This document shows, piece by piece, positions 2,185 through 20,000 of a stretch of DNA of 20,000 nt; position 1 is the first letter of the stretch, and the number at the start of each line of letters is the position of its first letter. Under the pieces are notes generated by a model that worked only from the letters and a program-made list of their open reading frames with translations, made no database searches and was not told where the DNA came from. Origin of the DNA: Tricharina praecox (lineage: Eukaryota); the NCBI RefSeq assembly GCF_024521635.1, contig NW_026250447.1, positions 115,621 through 135,620 of the forward strand, written 5' to 3'. The position numbers and the translations under genes were made by a program.

Positions 2185-3824
2185 CATCTCCACGGACTAC
2201 AGAGACATGACCCAGTCATGTGCACGAACCTCACTTGTTCGTCACCACCGGCGAGCCTACCAGCTTCAACTACACCCCAAACACCCATCTGGCAGACAAA
2301 GTGATCTCGTAGGCAGTAAAATGCGCCCCCCTCCGGGGAGCCATAACTGACAGGAGGCGAGAACTCAAAGCCGGTCGTGTCTTAACCTGTACATACACAA
2401 GAAATCACATGTACTATTAAACCATCCAATGTCGCGCCGTGTGAAACCCTGTTATACCACACCGGAAATGTGAGCCTGTGCACACCGCTTCATCCAATCT
2501 CACTCGCCATGCGTTACAATCATGATTATGATGTGTACTTGAATTACGGTCTCATTTAGACGGCAGTTTGAAGCATTCGCTACTTAATCTGTAGCAAGAG
2601 TAACCTACGTGCCGCTAGACATTCAACTGTTGTTGTCGTCGGCAGGTTCGTATGATGAAGCATTTCCCCACTTACATCCACCACACTGACTTCTGCCCCG
2701 TCGGAGGGGACCGAAAATAACGGCAATAAAATTCTGTACTACTCACCACAACGAAAAGGACACTTAATGATTGCCAGGAAAGAATATAAATGTATAGACT
2801 CTCATAAAATTCAACTTTTCTGTCTTCTTTTTTTTTACACTCTCAGGAGTAGATCTCGATGAAAAGTGCCAGAAAGCCATAAACTGTGTCACAACAGGGA
2901 TAAAGAGATATGGATGGATTGATAAACGGTGAGACTGTTGATTATAATGCTTCTCGTCGGGGCCGGAGCGGTGGGGAATTTGATTCCAGTCCATGCACTC
3001 GAGTGCTTTTGATATCACTCATATTCACCAGCTCTGCGCTAACCCCGGAAATTTGAAAAACACGGCGTCCCGCCAGACGGGCACGTAGGCATCCGCGCTC
3101 ACTGCGACACGCCAATTACCGCCGGCTGACCGAAAGGTACCTACTGGAGGTACTATCAAGGCAACCTGCAGAACGATTATTTCTTGGGGCGAATTCTGAG
3201 CACATATTTCGATAATCGAGAGTGTTAAAAGAGACCACAGATCGCAAAGGAACGTGAGTACAAAGAAATTGGAAATCTCACGATAGACAACAATTTTGAG
3301 ATCAGAGACTCGGAGTAGGGCAGAGGTTTTATGTACCAGGAGCTTCTCTTTTATGGAGAATCTCCTGTGTGATGGATGCCCCTTCACTACACTGAGAAGC
3401 TTCTGAAGGCGAGTTTCGCGACGACGTCTTGCGCCGAGTCGTGATATACGAACGGGTGGGCAAAGATATCACAAATCTTAACTCTACCATTCTATCATGT
3501 TTTGATTGATGTCGTTGGAAACCTATTCGCTAGGCACTTAATTAGGCAGGTCAAATCGGCTTTCTCGTGGGATAACTAGTGGGGAATCATTTGTGGTGTT
3601 GGATATGCTGATACTGCTACTGTGTGCGGAATATACTATTCCAATGCGGTTCCTACTATCACTACATCGATACGTGTCGGGGTATTCACACAATGACGGG
3701 CAACATGCTGAGAGGTTCTCTGAATTCGATTATCTCTTCGCCCCACGGCGACAGGAGATACGCGCAACCACACCGTAATATGTACATGACGCAACACGTC
3801 CCCCTCTCCCCTCCCGATTGCGCC

Positions 3825-5258
3825 CTATTCCTTCTCCGTTTTCGTCTCCGGTTTCCGGCCGACAACATGCCACCTGTATTGTCACAGGTGTCAGCACCGC
3901 GCGAAGTCGATCTGGTCTGTAGGCGGGGAGAGGGGGGGAGAGGGGAAAATTTACATGATCTGATATGAGTGCACCTTCTTAGTCTCGATCTCGGTCTGCG
4001 CACTGTTGCACAGCTTGACGACCTCGTCAGAGCTCATGCCTAGGTACCGCGTCAGCGGTGCCATGGCGTACGACTGCAGCCCGGTGGCACTGGTCAGCGC
4101 GGCGATGTACCCCGCCCGCTTCATATCCGGGTTCTTGGGCCAGCCGCCCCAGGGCTGCTTGAACTGGTGGATCTGGGTCCGTGTTGGTGGATGTTCGAAG
4201 CGGCAGAGGCTGGGCAATGGGCTGGCTTACTTTTATATCGACGAACCCAGCGGCGGCGATCTGTCCTTCAGGAGTTCACCCGACGGAAGCACCAGATTCG
4301 CCCCCGAGAGCGACTTGATGAAGCATGCAAAGTAGGTTTCGATCGAAGTGCAGGCCAACGTGCCGTCATCCGAGTGCACCGCTGTCTCGGCCTATGCCAG
4401 CTCTATGTATCCGCCAGGCTTGGTGTGGCTAGATGGCGCGCGCAGTCAGTCAGCCGAGTGCTTGCAGAGTGAGTGGACGAGGACGAACAGGAATATCTGC
4501 TCCAGGTATTTAGGCCAGTCACGAACGCTCTGGGCGATGTTTCGAGAGTGGATCAAGTCGAAGTAGTCCTGCGCGCGCCTTAGTGGGGGTTGCCGCAGGT
4601 CGGAGGCGCAAAAAGCTGCGGTGATCGTGTGCATACCTTGCGGAAGGTCCAGTCTAGTTCGAGGTCGTCGACTTCGAAGCGCACGTTGGGTACAACCCAG
4701 TCGGGTTGGATCGGACTCAGGTCCACGCCGACGACCTCCGCCGACGGGAATAACTCGCCCATATCCAACGCCCAGATACCGGTTCCGGTACCGCAGTCGA
4801 GTATGTGCTGTGGCTTCTCGCCGATCGGCGCAACGTAGAGTGATCCTTTGAGTGACAGAAGCTGTAGGTGATGGTACAAATCGAGGCTTTGACAGGGCGT
4901 TTAGCTTCACTTCCCTCCGATTGCCGTGAGAGGACTGACCGATCTTGCTCCCGCTCATCGTTCGGCAACATGTACTTGCCCTCTTGGAAACGGTGGTATC
5001 GCCGGCCGTTCTCATAGACGTAGTAGACGATCGAGGAGGTTATGCTGTGCGTTGAACTCTCCCTACGGCAGATGTCAGTCGTTGCATGTACACACGAACA
5101 GTGGTTGGCATGTGGGCGTACAGGGTGGAGGAATATTCCGACGAAGAAAAATCGGCATCGTCAACTTCCAACTGCGGTTGTCAGCCTGGTGAGAAAGTAT
5201 AGTCAAGTCCGCAATGGAGACCTACAGCCGGCTGCTCGATGAATTCTGCTGTTGCCAT
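3825..5258 (-). pseudogene. LaeA-like (LLM-type) class I SAM-dependent methyltransferase, 8 exons, disrupted by a nonsense codon and a 1-nt frameshift
   Basis: Manual splicing on the - strand gives exons 5258-5226, 5171-5122, 5062-4940, 4886-4637, 4568-4489, 4428-4231, 4172-3955 and 3873-3825, all GT..AG. The translation has the family motifs YENGRRYH, LPNDEREQDRLDL, LDCGTGTGIWA (SAM motif I), GVDLSPIQP, PNVRFEVDDLE, KPGGYIEL, AGFVDI and C-terminal GRKP. There is an in-frame TAG at 4392-4394 and a missing base near 4261-4263. Repaired length is about 333 aa. Confidence 0.9.
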
Positions 5259-6748: not shown

Positions 6749-7139
6749 GTTGTGGGCCTGCAGTCGATACCTACCGATGCCCACGTATGTACCAGTGTTC
6801 CACGTCAATTCCTACCTCAATGGTTTAGCCGGTGGATGACAAGGGTTTCGCTGACCAGTTCGATTGTCGCTTGTGGCGCGGTGGAGCCTGGAGGCCATCA
6901 AATAATCGTGGCGGTATCGGGCCGCAGAGTTCCCAAGAGCGAGAACCTCAAGCCTTGCGTTTAAGGTTTCGTTTCCGACGCGTAGGCATATTGGGAATGT
7001 CACAAATGGGTCATCTCCACATTAATTATTAGTCCGTCATTCAGTCGACGGCGTGAACATCGCGCATCGCATCCGAATAGAACCTAATATTGCTCGTCCC
7101 AGCCATCCGTAACAAACCATCACTGCTAAAGCCATGCAA

Positions 7140-8513
7140 CTACTCCTCCTCTCCAGGCGCATCCTCATCCTCGTCGTTATCTTGCTCGTCGTGGTGGGTC
7201 TGCTGCCCAGCGGGCGGTAGCTCCACTCCCTCATAGCGGGCAACATACTCCTCTCTCCTCCTCTTCTCCGATGGGATCAGGTCCCTAATCTTCAGTTTGA
7301 GTGCCTCGGCGGCCAGCTCCTCCTCCCCCTCATCTTCTCGCCGCTGGCTCAGATCGAATTGGAACTTTGCCTTTCTCTTGGGACGGATGGTGTATCGTCC
7401 AAGGATGGGGTAGAAGTAGGCGCCGCGGGGCCTGTCCTCGTCGCCGGCCCGCAGACACATGGCGACCTCCTCGGGCTGCATGTCGAACTGGGTGTGCCCG
7501 CCGCGGGTATCCTTCGCTTCGTAGCGGCGCACGTACGTGTAGCGGAATTCGTCGTCGTCCAGGTCTTCCTCGTACGAGAACTTGCGCTTCACGGCGCCGG
7601 CGGTGGTGGTGGTGTCGGGAATGTAGAAGTCGAAGCACTCCCTGCGCTCCTCGGGCGGGGTTTCGTCGTCGTGGTGCGTCTCGACCGGCTGGAATAGACT
7701 CATGTCGATCCTGACGTCCCTGCGACCGTCGCGCTCGGCGTCCGTCGGCGCGGTCTGGAACTTGAACACCATGTAGCCGCCGGTATCGCTCATCCCCTCG
7801 AGATGAGGCAGCAGCGGGAAAGTCTCGAGCGCCTTGACGCCGGGCTTGTTGGGATGCTTCAGCTCCTTCCAGTTGCGCTCCGCGTTCATGGCCGCCTTGT
7901 CGCCGGAAGCGTACTGTCGCGCCGCATCCGGAACATCCGGATTGGGGTTCGCGACGTCGAATCCCTTCATCACCGCAGCCAAGATGCGCACGGGATCGGT
8001 GTCCTCCGGTCGCTGCGTCGTGCGGCGCGATTTCGACGGGATCGCGACAAGCTGGCTCGACGTCGTCGATTTGAACGATGACCGTGATTGCTCGGCCGAG
8101 ATGTACTCGGTACGACGTAGAAAGGAGACACTGCTACCCCCGGTCGCAGTGCGGTTGGTGGGCTTTCCGAGGGACGCCGCGGGCCGGAGAAGCGCGCGGT
8201 CGCGCGGATCGACAGGCGGGATAGGATCCATGGGACGTAATACCGAGTCGTCGCCCTCGAAGACGCGCGGGATGTGCACCAGGTCTAACGGCATGCCGAG
8301 CTCCGAGTCCACCTCGATGTTGAGGGGCTCCGAACGGGCGAGTTGCGAGACGAACGACGTATCGGTGTACTGCGAGAAGGCGGAGTTGGGCACGTCGAGA
8401 AGCTTCGGGGGGCCAATCGGGATGGGGAGGGCATTGTTGTAACGGATGCGCGCAATATAGTCTTGAGGGTAAGTTCGTGACGCCGCTGGGCGTTGCGAAG
8501 AGGAGGACGACAT
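7140..8513 (-). CDS. PAF1: RNA polymerase II-associated factor Paf1 (Paf1 complex subunit), 457 aa, intronless
   Basis: Uninterrupted ORF from the ATG at 8513 (MSSSSSQRPAASRTYPQDYIARIRYNNALPIP...PKLL). It contains the Paf1 motifs DSELGMPLDL, DPRDRALL, VSFLRRTEYIS and LKHPNKPGVKALETFPLLP, and ends in an acidic tail. Confidence 0.95.
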   Translation of the reverse strand: MSSSSSQRPAASRTYPQDYIARIRYNNALPIPIGPPKLLDVPNSAFSQYTDTSFVSQLARSEPLNIEVDSELGMPLDLVHIPRVFEGDDSVLRPMDPIPPVDPRDRALLRPAASLGKPTNRTATGGSSVSFLRRTEYISAEQSRSSFKSTTSSQLVAIPSKSRRTTQRPEDTDPVRILAAVMKGFDVANPNPDVPDAARQYASGDKAAMNAERNWKELKHPNKPGVKALETFPLLPHLEGMSDTGGYMVFKFQTAPTDAERDGRRDVRIDMSLFQPVETHHDDETPPEERRECFDFYIPDTTTTAGAVKRKFSYEEDLDDDEFRYTYVRRYEAKDTRGGHTQFDMQPEEVAMCLRAGDEDRPRGAYFYPILGRYTIRPKRKAKFQFDLSQRREDEGEEELAAEALKLKIRDLIPSEKRRREEYVARYEGVELPPAGQQTHHDEQDNDEDEDAPGEEE

Positions 8514-8691
8514 TTTGAATAGGGTGGTTGGTGGTCGTCGTGGAGTTAGGGTGGTGGAAGACTGGTGAGAGTGAATGAGCTTGAAGTTTCCCGACGCGAC
8601 AGAGCGATCGAGCTGTGCGGTCCCGTGCGCAGACACGCTAGTCCAGATTAACGCATATCGAGTGATGGACCTGGGTAGCCGCAAAACGGCC

Positions 8692-8697
8692 ACGCGT
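8692..8697. promoter_or_regulatory. Single MluI cell-cycle box (ACGCGT) upstream of PAF1
   Basis: Exact ACGCGT about 180 bp upstream of the PAF1 ATG. A single hexamer can easily occur by chance. Confidence 0.3.
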
Positions 8698-8847
8698 CTA
8701 AATTTTCCAACGGTAAAGCAGGCACTTCTATTCTATTCTCTATTGTTACAGTCGAATTCGTTTACTCTCATTATCGGGGGAGTCATTGAAGTCTGATAGA
8801 GGACGACACCCCAACTGCCCTCGGAAACAATGCAGCCAGTCAGGACA

Positions 8848-8891
8848 GCGGGAAAGCGGGAAAGCGGGAAAGCGGGAAAGCGGGAAAGCGG
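8848..8891. repeat. Perfect 8-bp tandem repeat (GCGGGAAA) x5.5
   Basis: Copies start at 8848, 8856, 8864, 8872 and 8880, plus a partial GCGG at 8888-8891. It lies about 335 bp upstream of the PAF1 ATG. Confidence 0.97.
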
Positions 8892-10177
8892 AGTAGAAAA
8901 TGGGACTGTCAGCCGCTTAGATGGCTGTTTAGGAGTGATCGCCCATCATTATAGTAGATACCACATGCTCTAGAGATTTTTGACAGCGAGTGTTCCACCT
9001 GAGATCGTGGGCAGGGATGGAGAAATCAACCGTCCTGGCCGGTACATACCCGTCCTGACTCCTAATCGTTGGTGGTGCAGAGATACATCGGTTCTCTACG
9101 AGACTTGCAGACCCAACTGGGTTGCATGGTACCGTTGGAAACGGCGGTCCGCTCTGCTATGTAATCTGCCCGAGATCGGCACCATTGGGAGTTGCCCAAC
9201 GCATCATCCGATGAATCTTCCCGCAGACCGTTTGTGGCGGCAGACGCAGCAATGCACGCTTTGCATTAGCCGCGGCAGTTGTATGTTCTATCATACGACC
9301 AAATAGACGGATAAACGCAACCCATCATGCAGACACCCCGACGGAGGAGGTTAAATAGCTGGCGGCTGCGAGCTGGGTGGCCTGGAGAAGGAGAGGAAGA
9401 AGCAGCAACTCGGCAGCGACGGGCCGCATAGAAGTGAGTGACGTGGGCGCAGTGGATTCCCGTTTGCTGGCGGGTGTTTTCTCGAATGCATGCGTGTGAA
9501 ATGCTGCTACGTGAACTCTGCAGGGCGGCTAATCAACGCAGCTGCACACAGCAATGCCCACCACTCCCCCGCCTATCCGGCCTTCTTTCGGCGGCGGGGA
9601 ACGGCGGTAGATTAGTGCAAATACGCCACAGTGGGAGTCGCGACTCGCGCGTGCCATGAGCATTCACTCATCCCTTTTCCACAACGCCAAAAAAATATTA
9701 TTTTAATATGTGCGGCTGAGGCTGAGGTGGTTGCCGCATCGGGTAGAAATCAACGACCCCTGTGGGCCCACAGGAATTGTCACGACTATGGACCGTGCAC
9801 GAAAAGTGAAGTGAGTGAGATAATGAGGATGTGTTTCTGTCATGAACGCTCCCTCTAAAGTTGGGCTTGCCACCAAAGCTTACAGGAACCGATCCCGCAA
9901 GATTGGGAGTCGAACCTTTAAAGTTTTCTTGGCATAGTGTATCGCGTCAGTTTCACGTATTCTACACGACGATCAGCCGCGGCGCACAATTGTCAGCAGT
10001 ACGTAGGTTTGCAGCGCCTCCTGGTCCGTTCACCTGAGACGTAGGCTTCCCCACATACAACTGGCTCCCAATGAACTTACACATCATACGGAAGCAGACC
10101 AGCAACGCGAGCAAACATACCAACAGCAAGAACGAGCATACATACTGGCAGCAGGAACGACCATCTCGAGCGGCACA

Positions 10178-12374
10178 ATGCTTCGTTCCCAGTATTGTGA
10201 CTTCAGATCATGTTGGCATGCCGGGGAGGACAGCGTCCATCCTCGCCGTCCACTGAGATTTAGAACTCAAGCCAAAATTTACTCTCCTGCTACTGATGAA
10301 CGTATCCGTCATACGCACGTTTCTCGACAACACGTCCCCTCTCCGACTCTCGTCCCCCGTCTTCCAGCCCCCTCGTTCGGCCTCCTCAAGCTCCCCCCAG
10401 AAATCCATAGCATGATCATCGAGTACCTTACTCCCGAGTCCGCACGCGCGATGACGGTATTCCTGTCTAGCCCGACGATCCTAAAAATATCAGAATCCGA
10501 CATGAACCTCGGCATGTACGTGTGCAAGGCTAGCACAGGGGGAAATTGCGGAAGGATGCTCATGGAGACACTCTCGCTGCCGGAGTTCTCGCTATCCACC
10601 TTCGGTGTACTCCTTGACGCCTGCCCGACGAACGAGTTGATAACTCAGCACTATCCAGACTGGCAATTGGATGGCACCGTGCCCATAGTTAGGGACAACC
10701 CACCTTGGAAGAATAATAATGTGGCTTGGTTGCATACAGTGTGTAGCGTTGGGTGCTCAACACTGCAACTTGCACGGATATATCCGCGCGATGCACCGGA
10801 GACATGGTCGAATCCAATCGATATGGCTGCGGCTGTTGGTGAGTGGTCATGTTCCCCTTACGCGTCCCAATGAAGCGTGGAAGCTAACGTGAGCTCTAGG
10901 GAATGCTGATGTACTTCAGCTTCTGCTTGATCAGCTCGACAGTAGGGATGCGTTGGCTGACTCACCGACCTTCGGATTTATCCAGCCCGTGCATCCCCCG
11001 GATAAGCCCACGCGACCGGTACATCACCTTCCGCCATCCGCGCGCGAAATACGGGCTGTTGGACCTCTACACTGGGCGGCGGTCTACGGACAATATGATA
11101 CGTTCGCTATCTTGATGGCTTGGTTCCTAGAGAATAATCCAAAACGGTTGCTCCATATTCTGGATTGCGACTGTAGTCTTAGCGTGCTTCATTGCGCGGT
11201 GCTTGCTACCTTTCACCCTGGTCGTCGGCGAGAAATAGGAGGAATAATAGAGATAATCCGTGCCGTGGCCGGGCTGCTGCCGGAAGAAGCTCGGTACGAG
11301 AATCCATCGCCGCTTTACCTGGCCGTGAGGTCGGGAAATACCGATGTACAGCTATTTCAGGCTCTCCTCTCAGTCCCTAGCGGTATTGAAGCGTACCAAG
11401 ATGCCAATTTGTGCTCTCAGCTTCTCATGTGGCCCGCTGTCTTCAATACTCTGCTGGATGCTGGTCTCTGGGTCGAAGAAAAGAGCGTTGCGGCCCTTGC
11501 CAGGAGGATTATGGTTTCAAGACACCGCAACGAGTCTAATTGCATCAACTTTCACGCGGCACTACAGCGAATCCCCCAACCTTTGAAAGATTGTCTTGTT
11601 CACTATGTTCTGCGCTCGTTTCTGGAATTGGAGGCATGCGATCTGGAATATGGAATGGAAGATGAAATAGAAAATCCATTGGTCATGCTCAAGGATGGCG
11701 GCTGTCGCTTCAGCCACGGAGTCGGTCCTTCGGGTCTTTCCGCACAACAACACTTGATGTTTGGCCATTGGCCAGACGACCGAGCTGCGGCAGTACTGTT
11801 GGGCTGGCTGGTGGAGGAAACAGGCCTGGATTGCGCACCGTTTTCAACGCCGAGAAAATTCGACCGCGGATTCAGGTACATGTGGCCCGAGACGACCACA
11901 CGCGAGCTCGCAATCCAGACTGCGTCTGTTCCGATCTACTCCATCGTTCTGGATGTACCCCACGTCCCTCTCCCAGGCGCCACTCCCGACGCGGCATGCG
12001 CCATCATTGGACGGCAGGATGATTCCGAGTCTCCCGAGTATACCGACACCGAGTATCTCGCCAAGTTTCTGGTTTATCCAACTGACATTGCCGAAGTCTT
12101 TGAATGGATGCTCACAATGACCGAGACGCACGCCGACATCATACTGGACTGGTCGTTCCGCGACATTCCTAACTTCGTTGCACACGTGGGACATGCGGTT
12201 TGGCAAGCGATGAGGTGGATTCAAAGCACCAGGGAGAACGGCGTGAAAGAGATGAAGGAGGCCGGATACGAACTGAGAGAGTGGGCTCGCCGAACATCAG
12301 TAGCCAAGCGGTGGGTACCCGAGAAGCTCACTGAATCGCTTGAAAAGCTCTGTCAGACTGCCGATTCATTTTAG
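10178..12374 (+). CDS. F-box + ankyrin-repeat protein, 2 exons (10178-10838, 10900-12374), about 711 aa
   Basis: Intron 10839-10899 (GTGAGT...GCTAAC...TAG) joins the two long ORFs in frame and rebuilds an ankyrin repeat across the junction (NPIDMAAAVG|NADVLQLLLD). F-box-like motif LLKLPPEIHSMIIEYL at about 10382-10430. Further ankyrin-like repeats are GPLHWAAVYGQYDTFAIL, SVLHCAVLA and SPLYLAVRSGNTDVQLFQALL. The start codon is less certain than the rest. Confidence 0.8.
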
Positions 12375-13741: not shown

Positions 13742-14211
13742 GGTGATCGAGAGTGTCGAGTTGGACGGAATGAGACTGGGATCGGAGGAAAGGACGGGGT
13801 CTGTTGGTGGATGCGTATGTTCTGGAGAGGTGGTGTGGAGGTGGTGACGAACTTGGGGAATGTTGTAAGGAAGAATGAAAGCTGCCGGAAGAACAGGGAG
13901 GGGTCTGCGCTTTGTAGCAACTGCTCTTCCGGCGCCGATGCATCGGTGAAGGCATCGGAGTTTATTTCGCATACAGACTATCCAGACTACACCGAACGTA
14001 CTAACAAACAGAAGGGGTGTACCCTCCGGGCGGTCGAGGAAGAAACCGCCAGTGCACACATCCCCGGTAATCGCCTAGGTGGGCGGGTGATAGTCTATGA
14101 GCGCATATCGACACAACCGGTCCGTTCAATGTCTACCTTCATCTATTGACTGGCTGACTATGGGTGCTAGGTCGAGGGGAGGTGCATCGATGACTCGTCC
14201 ACTGCAGAGAT

Positions 14212-14300
14212 CTGTGGCGAGAGCTGTGGCGAGAGCTGTGGCGAGAGCTATGGTGCGTGCTATGGCGCGTGTATGAGTGTGGCGCGTGCTGTGGCGTGTG
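14212..14300. repeat. 12-bp minisatellite (CTGTGGCGAGAG) x3 followed by diverged copies
   Basis: Exact copies start at 14212, 14224 and 14236, followed by CTATGGTGCGTG, CTATGGCGCGTG and further degenerate units to about 14300. Confidence 0.9.
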
Positions 14301-14693
14301 TAGTTTACGAAGCAGCCTCGCCGGTGCCACCGCATCACCAGCCAGCCTCCCTTCAGCCTGCTACTCTACCGCTAGCGTTCCTTTTCCGACGTCCATTCCC
14401 CCAATCCCCCCTGCCTACATGCGCATCGTTGCACAGAACTTTTGGCCGATCGAAAGGATCTCTGCAGACGGTATCCACTCTACCCATGGTAGCCAGGTAT
14501 GTGGGCACGCTAGTTGTACATCATCACGTCAGGCATCCTCTTCCGGTTGGGCAGGAAAATATAGTGCACGACCCCGCCCACGACCAAGCGGGGGAGCATG
14601 AGCCGCGACGCCGAATACTGAAACCTAGAGTACAACTGGGCACGAGGCGGTATCGGATGAGGGGGTTTAGGTAAGGCCGGGCCACCGATCTCA

Positions 14694-14698
14694 TATAA
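14694..14698 (+). promoter_or_regulatory. Possible TATA element of FKBP12
   Basis: TATAA about 95 bp upstream of the ATG, followed by a C/A-rich leader typical of filamentous-fungal 5' UTRs. Confidence 0.35.
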
Positions 14699-14789
14699 CC
14701 TCAATCCCCCTTCAATCCTCCATCAGCCCCATCTACCCCACCACACCCACACCATACTCCATCCGAAACTTCATCACCACAAAGCAGTC

Positions 14790-15635
14790 ATGGGCTTCAC
14801 CAAGGAAATCCTGTCCGCAGGCAACGGAGTCAACTTCCCCAAGAAGGGCGACAAAGTCTCTATGCACTACACCGGAACCCTCGTCGACGGCAAGAAGTAT
14901 GTAGCTGCCCATTCTCCCAGCTCTGCAGCCTTATTGACATCGATATGGAAAGGTTCGACTCCTCCCGCGACCGCGGCCAGCCATTCGTGACTGCCATCGG
15001 AGTTGGCCAGGTCATCGGAGGTACGAAGCCATTGCCGTCCCCATCTCCACTGCGCGCGCACCACGAGCCGACATCTCTGCCGCCGACACCCCAATGCCGA
15101 GTTTCTGCCGCCTGTCGTCTCAATTAAGATTTACTGACGACCCTCTGTTATCTACACAGGTTGGGATGCGGGCGTTCCCACCATGTCTCTGGGTGAAAAG
15201 GCCGTCCTTACCATCACTGCGTAAGTCGTTCCCGCGTTCCTACCCCCGAATTTCCTCGATTACAACAACCATTCGTCCCCCACGGCTCCGTGTATCTGAC
15301 TGACTTTTCCGCAGTGACTCCGGCTACGGAGCTAGGTAAGAATCTACAACCACGGTGTGCCGTTTGCACTCCCGCTTTGCTGACAATCAATTCCTTGCTC
15401 GTTCAGGGGAATTCCCGGTACGATCCCGCCGAACGCGACTCTCGTCTTGTAAGTTCTCAATTCTCTGTCCCTTTTCCCCTCTCTCGAGCTGCCGCAAACT
15501 TAATGCGAGCGATGCATGACTCGCATGAGCGATTCGCATGAGCGATTCGCAGCAGCGGGAGGCCACATCATTCGCCGCTATCACACCGCTAACTTCCTTG
15601 TGAATAGCGAGGTCGAACTCCTCAAGATCAACTAG
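14790..15635 (+). CDS. FPR1: FK506/rapamycin-binding protein FKBP12 (peptidyl-prolyl cis-trans isomerase), 108 aa, 6 exons
   Basis: Exons 14790-14896, 14953-15020, 15160-15220, 15315-15335, 15407-15448 and 15608-15635 total 327 nt, all GT..AG and in phase. Protein: [108 protein letters not shown]. FKBP signatures HYTG, FDSSRDR, VIxGWD, YG and [14 protein letters not shown] are present. Confidence 0.96.
15521..15551. repeat. 13-bp tandem duplication (TCGCATGAGCGAT) in FKBP12 intron 5
   Basis: Copies at 15521-15533 and 15534-15546, plus TCGCA at 15547-15551. Confidence 0.9.
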
Positions 15636-16682: not shown

Positions 16683-17260
16683 ACCGCCGAACGTGAGAAA
16701 GAAATCCCTAAATGATATTGCGCCAAAGGAATAGCTTGTGCATACATGACATCCAAATAGATAACCATCGCATCACCCAGGCGGTTGCAGATGCCCCCAG
16801 TGCGCTCGCCTCCAGATTCTATGTACCAGCTAAAGACCAACCATGCTCCAACAGCAAAGTACATGCATTGAATTGGCAAGAGAGAGGACGCGGACTGCTG
16901 GTGGTGCTACGATCAACTCTCCGCCTAGACACGCGAGCACTTGTTCAAGTGCTGCAGCAATTGGAAGGAATAGGAGAAGGAACTGTGGGGGGAGGTGGAA
17001 AAGATCAGCCGCAGAGGGCGGGACCGCTGGCGAGTATGTAGCGGACCTCTTTGCCGATGAGCGGATGGCAGAAGCAATCCTCACGTTTCTCAGAGAGACT
17101 GAGATTGGTAGAAGGCTACCGGGCGAAGAACGGTAGCAGGACCCGCCGCCGAGCGAGACGCCGGGGGTAGACTACGGGGGCGAGGAGTAGGATTCGAGGA
17201 GGAGAAGCGCAGCGGGCGCGGGAGGTGTGAAATTAGTTCGCTTCCTTTTGCTTTTTCCAT
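16683..17260 (+). mobile_element. 5'-truncated, degenerate non-LTR retrotransposon (Tad/LINE-like), ORF2 C-terminus with CCHC zinc knuckle
   Basis: Stitching three frames gives AVADAPSALASRF/YQLKTNHAPTAKYMH*IGKREDADCWWCYDQLSA*TREHLFKCCSNWKE*EKELWGEVEKISRRGRDRWRV/ADLFADERMAEAILTFLRETEIGRR. This matches the fungal LINE ORF2 tail pattern (RFYQLKTGH...CWWC...QTREHLFKxC...LFADER..AxLxFL..TxxG). Stops are at 16869, 16926 and 16971. A T-rich tract follows at about 17236-17260. Boundaries are approximate. Confidence 0.85.
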
Positions 17261-18024
17261 TGGCTAGTGTATCTCTCGCGGGCAGGCCAGAGACGCTGAT
17301 AATGACTGATGTAGACTTGCGTGCCCGCTCCTCCCTCCACCTCGCCTGTTCCCTTACCTGTGCCTTACTTTCCTTTGGTGTTACTGAATGAACGGCGTAA
17401 TCAGTCATTGCTAGCGCGGCGGGAACTGAAGGAGGAAGCCGGGACGGACAGGCGAACGCAGGTGGATGAAAACCGACTTCTGAGACAACACGTGGATCCG
17501 ATCGTGTGCGCGAGAGGCGGTTCGCTATGACGTATTCCATATGAGAGTATTCGTTCGGTGGTGTGTGCGGAGGAACCACAGATCTGAGGCTCTATTGTGG
17601 TTGTGTCAAGCAAATTCTCCGAAAGCCGCGTGATTTGCAACCGGAAGTACTCCACGTCTTTATTTGACCAACTTTCTTCTCTCATTGACAGTAGGAATTG
17701 AAAGTTGCAGGACAAAAAGACAACCACTACCCCAACTCGCGTCTAGCTAGATAGGTCACCGAAGTGAGAAAACGAAGAGAAACCGATCCGCACTGACGAG
17801 TGCCCGCAGTACAAACATGGATTTCAATGTCAACCCGGCGTGCTTGCTCGACGGGTTGTAAAAAGACAACATATTACCATCCCCAAACCACTGCAACCAA
17901 TCCCAGCACTACGCTGCGACTCTCTTTAGGGGTCATCCAGTCTTCGGGCAATCGAATGGTTTCAGCGATTTTCTAGACCACCACTCCGCAGCGCGAACGT
18001 AAGCATCTGGCGGGTAGCCTTACC

Positions 18025-20000
18025 TCAAGAAGACGCCGCCTTCCGAGCTTCTCGGAGTTTCTTCCCGATTTCCGGATGGATGTCTGCCACAGTTGTGCAC
18101 ACTCGAGTATAGCCGGGGTTGACCAGTATTTCACCTGATTGTTGGCTACGCCGGACGTACTTCGGGATCGATGTTGCTCGAGGATTGTCGTCTAAGTTCT
18201 CCAGGATCCAGAGGAACTTGATGTCAACATCATAGCCTGTCAGGTGGGTAGACTAGAAAGGCCAACGTGAGAGAAAGTTAAACTCCGCGCTCTCGTGGAA
18301 CTTGCGGATCGCAAATTGGACAGCGACAACAACCGCTTTCTGCCTCTTCGCGTTGCGGTATAGCAGCACGCCGACCGCAGAAGGGTAGTTCCACTCAATC
18401 GGTAGTATTTACAGCTGCGGCACTCCGTTGCGTATTTTTAGTGATGTTTTTGGAAGGTTGTGACAGGAATCGCTGCGTAAAACTCTTCTCCTGCAGGCTG
18501 GCAGCCTTTGGAAGATATGGCGCTGAACACCATTTGCTCCACAAAGAAACGCAAAATAAAGGGGTTTCCACGGGCCAACTTCAAGCCTTCAAACCATTGA
18601 TGTGACAGGAAACCTTTCCCGCAATCACCTGATTCCATTCGAAGGAAATTGGCAAGGGTTGTACGCGCAAGCATGGGTGTCGCAAATCCTCTCCCACCTT
18701 TTCTGTGGAAGTATCGTAGATCCATGTATTCTTCGCTTGCATCCGTGAGCCTGCCGTTATTGAGACAACAGTAGGACGTCGTAAGGTACCTAAAGCGAAT
18801 GTTAATTAAACACATTTAAAAGCAATAGTGAGGAACCTACCGTTCCCATCGGTCGTGCCGATTGTGACACGCTTACTGGAAGTCTTCCGCGAACGCACGC
18901 ACATTGGTGGTCAGGTTCTGTACTTCTGCTGATTCCCAGTAATTTCGGAAGACAGCAGCCATCCTATTCTCATCCTCAGTTTCAGGGTCCACGTCTAAGT
19001 TGTCGCCATTGCCGGGGCTTTCGATTTTGATTCCATCCATTTGGAGGAATACACGAAGGAGGATTGGATTTCTCCCTGTAATAGCTTCGATAGACCGTTT
19101 GTAATTTTGGCTAACCTTTATAGGCAACCGATCCGCAAATGTTGACCACCACTCGACCATCTCAACCTAGGTAGTTCGGAGTGTAAGTGTGCATCGGAGA
19201 TCCAGCCGTCAGAGAATCGTGTACAAGGATTGGCTACGTACATCAGTATATCCATCAAGGCAAATAATGCGGCTCTGATGTGTTTGACGTGATCTTTCTT
19301 TTCGGTAATCTTCCATGCTGCCACTGCAACTCCAGATGTTGGCATGGACGCTACAGATCTTATGGAGGTTAGCTAATGCCGCATCCTTTTGTGCCTTTCG
19401 GAGACTGCCAGTTTCGCGCAAGTCGAGGGCGTTCGTTTGATCGATGATGAGCACGAACTCCACACCACTATCCGCGAGTGCGCCGAAGATTGCTGCGAGT
19501 CCTTGGGATGGTGGGGTGCGTATAACCTGCATTTGGATCGCTGGACTGTCTGCAAATGCCAAGAGCAACGCTGCGCGCATGTACAAGAAATACGATTCCG
19601 CCAGCATGCGGCATTCGGGGATGTAAATCACCCGCCTTCCTTGTGCCTGTAGCAGACAGGTAAGCGCCGCAAGTAGGTGACTTGTGCCGGAGCCCTGCAG
19701 CAACCACTTCATATGGCCTTGTCCGGATCCCATTTTCTCAACTGCGTCGTAGACCTGAATGTATTTCTCTCTCCCGATGTACTGAAACCTATCGCCAACA
19801 AGGTCAAACCTGTCGGTTGGTTTCCACCGAAAAGCTGATGGAAATGGGAGGTTGGCGTTACCCGCCGCGCAGTCGGCGGGTAGACGAGGTACTTGGCTAA
19901 GCATCTGAGAAAGGCGAACGTAAGCTGAATTTTGGACAGTATAACGGCGCAACGACTCCGGCGCTTGGGGTATTGCCTTGTATGATAGGAATGTCTTCAA
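18025..20000 (-). pseudogene. Decayed P-loop NTPase gene with a putative C-terminal PD-(D/E)XK-like nuclease domain (Crinkler/CR-effector-like); 5' end lies outside the window
   Basis: Exons are >20000-19242, 19166-(18877 or 18841) and 18789-18025. Motifs include FQYIGREKY, a degenerate Walker A (LLQGSGTSHLLAAL, 19677-19697), RVIYIPECR, a Walker B-like FVLIIDQ, ITGRNPILL, and C-terminal WNYPSAVGVLL...VVAVQFAI...IKFLWI. Lesions are a frameshift near 18440-18450, TAA at 18409-18411 and TAG at 18253-18255. The terminal TGA is at 18025-18027. Confidence 0.7.

Follow-up and report, generated by a model that had tools for sequence, protein, structure and literature searches.

How does one six-letter word come to sit on both of the frame breaks in a dead retrotransposon? 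The locus that raises this question is a short LINE relic within a 20,000-nucleotide stretch of Tricharina praecox DNA, hereafter the window. The relic contains TATGTA exactly twice on the plus strand, with no other copy in either orientation, and its reading frame changes at each of them (Table 1). The first-pass annotation had proposed that both changes are scars of a departed Tc1/mariner-type transposon.

The LINE relic and its surroundings

The window looks like ascomycete nuclear DNA, since the nearest named clusters of its Paf1 open reading frame (ORF) belong mostly to Ascomycota. A domain scan of the window's ORFs placed the genes listed in Table 1. The reading of the Methyltransf_23-type gene is spread over three frames, and the first of its frame changes spans a gap of about 53 nt that resembles an ordinary short intron rather than a frameshift; a TATGTA lies just past the last ORF of this gene, at 4404. 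Tandem arrays occur upstream of two other genes: an 8-nt unit, GGAAAGCG, is repeated six times at 8835-8898, immediately upstream of the Paf1 ORF, and the FKBP gene has 12-nt GAGAGCTGTGGC-like repeats upstream of it at 14207-14295. Beyond the LINE relic, no recognisable gene was found between 17400 and 19200, where the sequence approaches a 263-aa open frame (19212-20000, minus strand) that has no Pfam match and continues past the window end.

Table 1. Positions in the window of the LINE relic, its two insertions and the neighbouring genes
Feature	Position	Strand	Description
Relic, frame A	16760-16822	+	...DNHRITQAVADAPSALASRFY; profile columns 45-65, E 0.0079 (weak; against three frames)
Relic, frame B	16824-17036	+	YQLKT...CWWC...HLFKC...RWRV; putative CCHC knuckle, three in-frame stops
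Relic, frame C	17038-17136	+	VADLFADERMAEAILTFLRETEIGRRLPGEER; profile columns 133-165, E 5.2e-09
Probable LINE 3' untranslated tail	17137-17355	+	Extent uncertain
TATGTA, site 1	16820-16825	+	TTC TA[TGTA]C CAG, in or next to a Tyr codon; frame A to frame B
TATGTA, site 2	17035-17040	+	CGA GTA[TGTA] GCG, at a Val codon; frame B to frame C
Methyltransf_23 gene	4446-5160	-	Domain scan of window ORFs
Paf1 gene	7143-8732	-	Domain scan of window ORFs
Ankyrin-repeat ORF	10893-12371		Domain scan of window ORFs
FKBP gene	about 14661-15124		Intron-containing; domain scan of window ORFs

Judged by protein homology, 16760-17136 is a remnant of the 3' end of a fungal LINE ORF2, truncated on its 5' side and drawn from the part that follows RNase H. 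Frame B, searched with its three stops read as X, matched 337 proteins of a representative library at E<=0.001, including 21 at E<=1e-10, and the best of these are 49-59% identical to it; a word-indexed search for longer proteins with the same piece returned one candidate and no scored match. An RNase_H domain lies upstream of the matched region in 8 of the 13 homologues scanned, and two longer relatives of the homologue P0028, namely P0158 (1302 aa) and P0170 (1332 aa), carry both endonuclease families, with PF03372, PF14529, PF00078 and PF00075. Because RNase_H lies upstream and the longer relatives combine RVT_1 with RNase_H, the homologues are C-terminal pieces of LINE ORF2, and the relic aligns with the C-terminus of proteins carrying Exo_endo_phos, RVT_1 and RNase_H. 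The closest long relative, P0162 (835 aa, RVT_1 and RNase_H), aligns in two gap-free pieces, with residues 702-772 matching 16824-17036 at 50.7% identity and residues 772-802 matching 17038-17130 at 61.3% identity. The putative CCHC knuckle is legible in frame B as C-x2-C-x10-H-x3-C, where the Pfam zf-RVT model scores 17.7 bits (E 0.006), under its cut-off of 27.5 bits.

Recognisable LINE homology starts at 16760. Upstream of this limit, a permissive tblastn with the upstream parts of 32 homologues detected no LINE homology, and neither RVT nor Exo_endo_phos was matched by any of the window's 124 ORFs of at least 70 aa. The lack of reverse transcriptase and endonuclease domains in the window, taken with the lack of homology upstream of 16760, points to a 5'-truncated fragment rather than an element. 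On the 3' side, a single weak tblastn alignment (P0092, 35% identity) covers the tail to 17355.

Frames were assigned with a profile built from 21 homologues. Its strongest match is to frame B, running from 16818 to 17036 over columns 63-133 (SMYQLKT...RWRV; E 4.3e-30). The frame C reading starts with VADLFADER and closes with the stop TAG at 17134-17136, and frame A is matched not only by the profile but also by tblastn with the upstream parts of 32 homologues (E 0.001-0.1), ending LASRFY. Within the recognisable homology the frame therefore changes exactly twice, once at each TATGTA, just as the first-pass annotation had it. A third change, from frame B to frame A near 16760, had been suspected by eye and found no support in either the profile or the permissive tblastn.

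The three in-frame stops of frame B, which the first-pass annotation left unmentioned, are TGA at 16869-16871 and TAG at 16926-16928 and 16971-16973. They align with W, Q and Q of the relatives (TGG to TGA once and CAG to TAG twice). All three are C-to-T or G-to-A transitions, as expected from deamination or a RIP-like process.

Two net +4 insertions and their ancestral bases

At each site two codons 4 nt apart match one and the same profile column, so both changes are net +4. Column 65 (Tyr) is read at site 1 as TAT at 16820-16822 and again as TAC at 16824-16826, and column 133 (Ile/Val) at site 2 as GTA at 17034-17036 and again as GTA at 17038-17040; residue 772 of P0162 is likewise used twice across site 2. 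These double readings bear out the earlier claim that both frameshifts are 4-nt insertions at a TATGTA. Where exactly each insert begins can be shifted by 2-3 nt. For site 1, for example, an ancestor with TAT and an insert of GTAC fits equally on length alone, but is less economical.

Site 1 leaves no room for a +1 change accompanied by a genuine extra residue: none of 133 homologue domains has an insertion there and four have a deletion. At site 2 such a change is unlikely: homologue domains do carry an insertion just before column 133 in 32 of 106 cases, but none of the 32 homologues most similar to the window has extra residues there, the first appearing at rank 33. The tolerance of this position for extra residues across the wider family nevertheless counts against reading site 2 as an excision footprint.

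The bases that preceded each insertion were reconstructed from distantly related DNA and from proteins about 50% identical. A metagenome scan recovered 48 loci (L001-L048), none of them close to this LINE family at the DNA level; all have amino-acid identities of 57% or less. They apparently come from one other fungus present in several samples, reduce to 27 non-redundant loci (103,693 bp), and are themselves truncated relics in which no RT domain was found. We drew on them for controls and codon usage rather than as copies of the family. Prokaryote genome contigs were also scanned for DNA with the exact flanks, 2-6 nt being allowed at site 2, and gave no matches, as expected.

For site 1, the relatives' DNA (21 distinct 15-nt contexts) contains 12 Tyr codons, 11 of them TAC and one TAT, and the usual reading is TTC TAC CAG. 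A TA at this position is secure, because any Tyr codon contains TA and the relatives mostly have TAC. For site 2, the 26 distinct contexts read ATC (20), ATA (2), GTC (2), GTT (1) and ACC (1); a TA is present in only two, which also weighs against an excision footprint there. The ancestral codon at site 2 was probably GTA, a reading taken from the window itself, where both duplicated codons are GTA. The excision reading of the first-pass annotation thus gains independent support from the relatives for the TA at site 1, while the probable TA at site 2 comes from the window. Neither TATGTA nor TACATA appears in any of the relatives' contexts, 21 for site 1 and 26 for site 2.

At both sites, then, a net gain of 4 nt places TG between two copies of TA, which is the form that defines a Tc1-type footprint at the sequence level.

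Chance, slippage and inherited scars

It is unlikely that both junctions carry the hexamer by chance. Even at the window's elevated density (22 per 20 kb), the probability that the hexamer falls on both in a usable register is about 1e-5 to 6e-5, and two identical +4 insertions on an inferred TA are in this respect established as something other than coincidence. The same figure bears on the simplest alternative, in which two unrelated small insertions, produced by replication slippage or by imprecise end joining of ordinary breaks, share their hexamer by accident. Small indels are indeed common in dead LINE copies: LINE paralogues from the other fungus, aligned across its 27 non-redundant loci, contain 78 four-nt gaps in 52 distinct contexts. 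Only 1 of these 52, however, has the form TA to TATGTA. Moreover, neither insertion in the window is a clean tandem duplication; TCTA-TGTA and AGTA-TGTA each need an extra transversion to be derived in that way. The frequency of TATGTA in the window, at 1.1 per kb, favours accident, but against the joint probability and the control indels we consider two unrelated insertions unlikely.

The lone control case (L023, near 856) takes the same form as site 2, with a longer allele of GGGTATGTAGCG and a shorter allele that has a single TA. Frameshift junctions in the control relics were also inspected (15, of which 14 are distinct): the hexamer is present at none of the five '+1' junctions, and TACATA lies near one distinct '+2' junction.

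The general abundance of the hexamer deserves separate attention. Counting both orientations, TATGTA/TACATA occurs at 22 sites in the window, compared with 4.9 expected from dinucleotide shuffles, 8.7 from a Markov-3 model and 14.5 from a Markov-4 model, and none of 200 dinucleotide shuffles reaches 22 (maximum, 13). It is the window's most over-represented hexamer under a first-order model and its commonest TANNTA word, followed by TAGGTA/TACCTA with 14. The excess could reflect widespread footprints or another word-making process.

Several features of these sites were noted in passing. The first 6.8 kb contains 15 of the 22, and C follows 11 of the 22. We rejected 5' splice sites as the main source of the excess, given that G precedes only 6 of the 22. 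One 10-mer, TATGTACCAG, occurs three times (3330-3339, 6786-6795 and 16820-16829); its flanks share nothing more, and the recurrence is probably due to chance, because several other non-repetitive 10-mers also occur three times.

A second alternative draws on this abundance. A sequence-specific process that involves no transposon might make TGTA or TATG at TA, for example if (TGTA)n microsatellites arise and expand where pyrimidines and purines alternate. Such a process would also account for the general excess, with the hexamer at the top of the window's over-represented words. The unrelated fungal LINE-bearing loci have the same density of the hexamer: they hold 105 TATGTA/TACATA sites in their 103,693 bp (1.01 per kb), compared with 15.6 expected under a first-order model, and contain (TGTA)n runs (for example L010, 841-861) as well as TATGTACATA palindromes (L006, 1410; L033, 834-860 and 1097). 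Slippage, however, requires an existing repeat, and the inferred ancestors, CTAC and GTAG, have none. The window itself lacks a (TGTA)n array and has only one TATATA site, and its hexamer excess falls to 1.5-fold under the Markov-4 model. We know of no described non-transposon mechanism that generates TATGTA at TA, and regard this explanation as distinctly unlikely.

The abundance could also be turned in favour of excision on a much larger scale, with the two scars being a sample from a dense, genome-wide litter of Tc1-type footprints that is itself the source of the hexamer excess. On that account, some +4 scars in neutral DNA may later have grown into (TGTA)n arrays, and the TATGTACATA palindromes may be double scars. 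We think so extensive a litter very improbable.

A further possibility is that the footprints are real but were made elsewhere, either in a source LINE copy whose product then arrived by trans-mobilised retrotransposition or in a locus that was later copied by segmental duplication. LINE copies can be mobilised in trans, and the window gives no indication whether the insertions are older or younger than the relic's arrival. Against this, two ORF2 frameshifts would make a source copy ill suited as a template, since a LINE preferentially copies the RNA from which its own proteins were translated. An origin elsewhere therefore seems to us very improbable as well.

Excision as the preferred reading

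We assign a probability of about 0.55 to both insertions being Tc1/mariner-type excision scars, a reading drawn from the sequence of the two junctions. The proposed history begins with a 5'-truncated, dead fungal LINE copy at about 16760-17355. After the death of the LINE, a cut-and-paste element of the Tc1/mariner superfamily would have moved into two TA dinucleotides lying 215 bp from each other and subsequently out of both. The putative element would have targeted TA and borne 5'-CA...TG-3' termini. Each insertion would have duplicated the TA; excision cuts staggered by 2 nt would then have left the element's terminal dinucleotide on the flank, and end joining would have closed the break to give the +4 scar TA-TG-TA. 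Such scars would be visible as the relic's only two frameshifts because the LINE ORF is conserved. The first-pass annotation had an element inserting and excising twice. Both insertions are present, but the number of visits is a matter of interpretation: two elements may have been involved, or, equally possibly, a single element hopping locally.

The window holds no candidate for the element, which tells against the excision reading. The 124 ORFs of at least 70 aa contain no transposase domain, nor do 127 of the 161 shorter ones (45-69 aa), the other 34 lying inside recognised genes. A search of the window for a TA-flanked inverted-repeat element gave 12 weak pairs (<=3 mismatches per 14 nt), none of which is convincing or starts with CA, and the three inverted pairs from the window repeat search are not relevant. 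TA-flanked Tc1/mariner families of the Fot1/pogo-like type are common in ascomycete genomes, according to part of one published account (PMC2836289).

The closest parallel is Tc1 of Caenorhabditis elegans. In the sections drawn on here, the published reports describe +4 footprints of TATGTA or TACATA at TA, left by 78% of endogenous somatic excisions and likewise by 8 of 11 excisions from a reporter (PMC12632400; bioRxiv 10.1101/2022.08.01.502254), in agreement with what the first-pass annotation had stated of Tc1. A review, in the portion used, explains such scars by end joining at the site of excision and describes them as flanked by the TA duplication (PMC2874221). As far as these accounts extend, Tc1 footprints and the relic sites share a TA target (in the relic secure at site 1 and probable at site 2), a net gain of 4 nt and the terminal 2 nt between the TA copies. 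For Tc1 the element is known, and its footprints were directly observed in the animal once it had excised; for the relic, the host is an ascomycete, the event is read from a dead ORF and the element is putative.

Sleeping Beauty, Passer, impala and Fot1 follow the same general scheme, in which the TA target is duplicated and a few terminal bases are left by end joining. The scars of impala, a fungal Tc1-like element, are 5 nt long, not 4 nt. Part of the literature on the other elements also reports different lengths: the Sleeping Beauty scar adds 5 nt, as TAG(T/A)CTA (PMC2874221), and Passer leaves 0-4 bp (PMC9976928). The Sleeping Beauty, Passer and impala lengths count against reading the relic's insertions as footprints. 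So does their density, because two scars at about 11 TA sites are more than the window-wide rate would give (p about 0.01-0.03). Past activity of a TA-specific element has been deduced before, for Stowaway MITEs of the Triticeae, from presence and absence together with residual footprints; that work, in the part considered here, compares orthologous loci across species (PMC1925063). For the relic, by comparison, a dead retrotransposon's conserved frame serves as the reference, read within a single sequence.

The kind of event proposed here is well known and the instance is new; its value lies mainly in being a clean example and in hinting at a method. In neutral DNA such a scar would normally go unseen for want of the original sequence. 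Here the conserved dead reading frame supplies that sequence and makes the two scars directly legible. The same principle would suggest a genome-wide approach, in which +4 insertions in dead repeats are polarised against the family consensus as a measure of DNA transposon turnover. Were the hexamer excess truly a genome-wide litter of footprints, dead ORFs would be a record from which the historical rate of DNA transposon excision in fungi could be measured. If confirmed from the genome, the two scars would show when and where a TA-specific cut-and-paste element was once active in this fungus.
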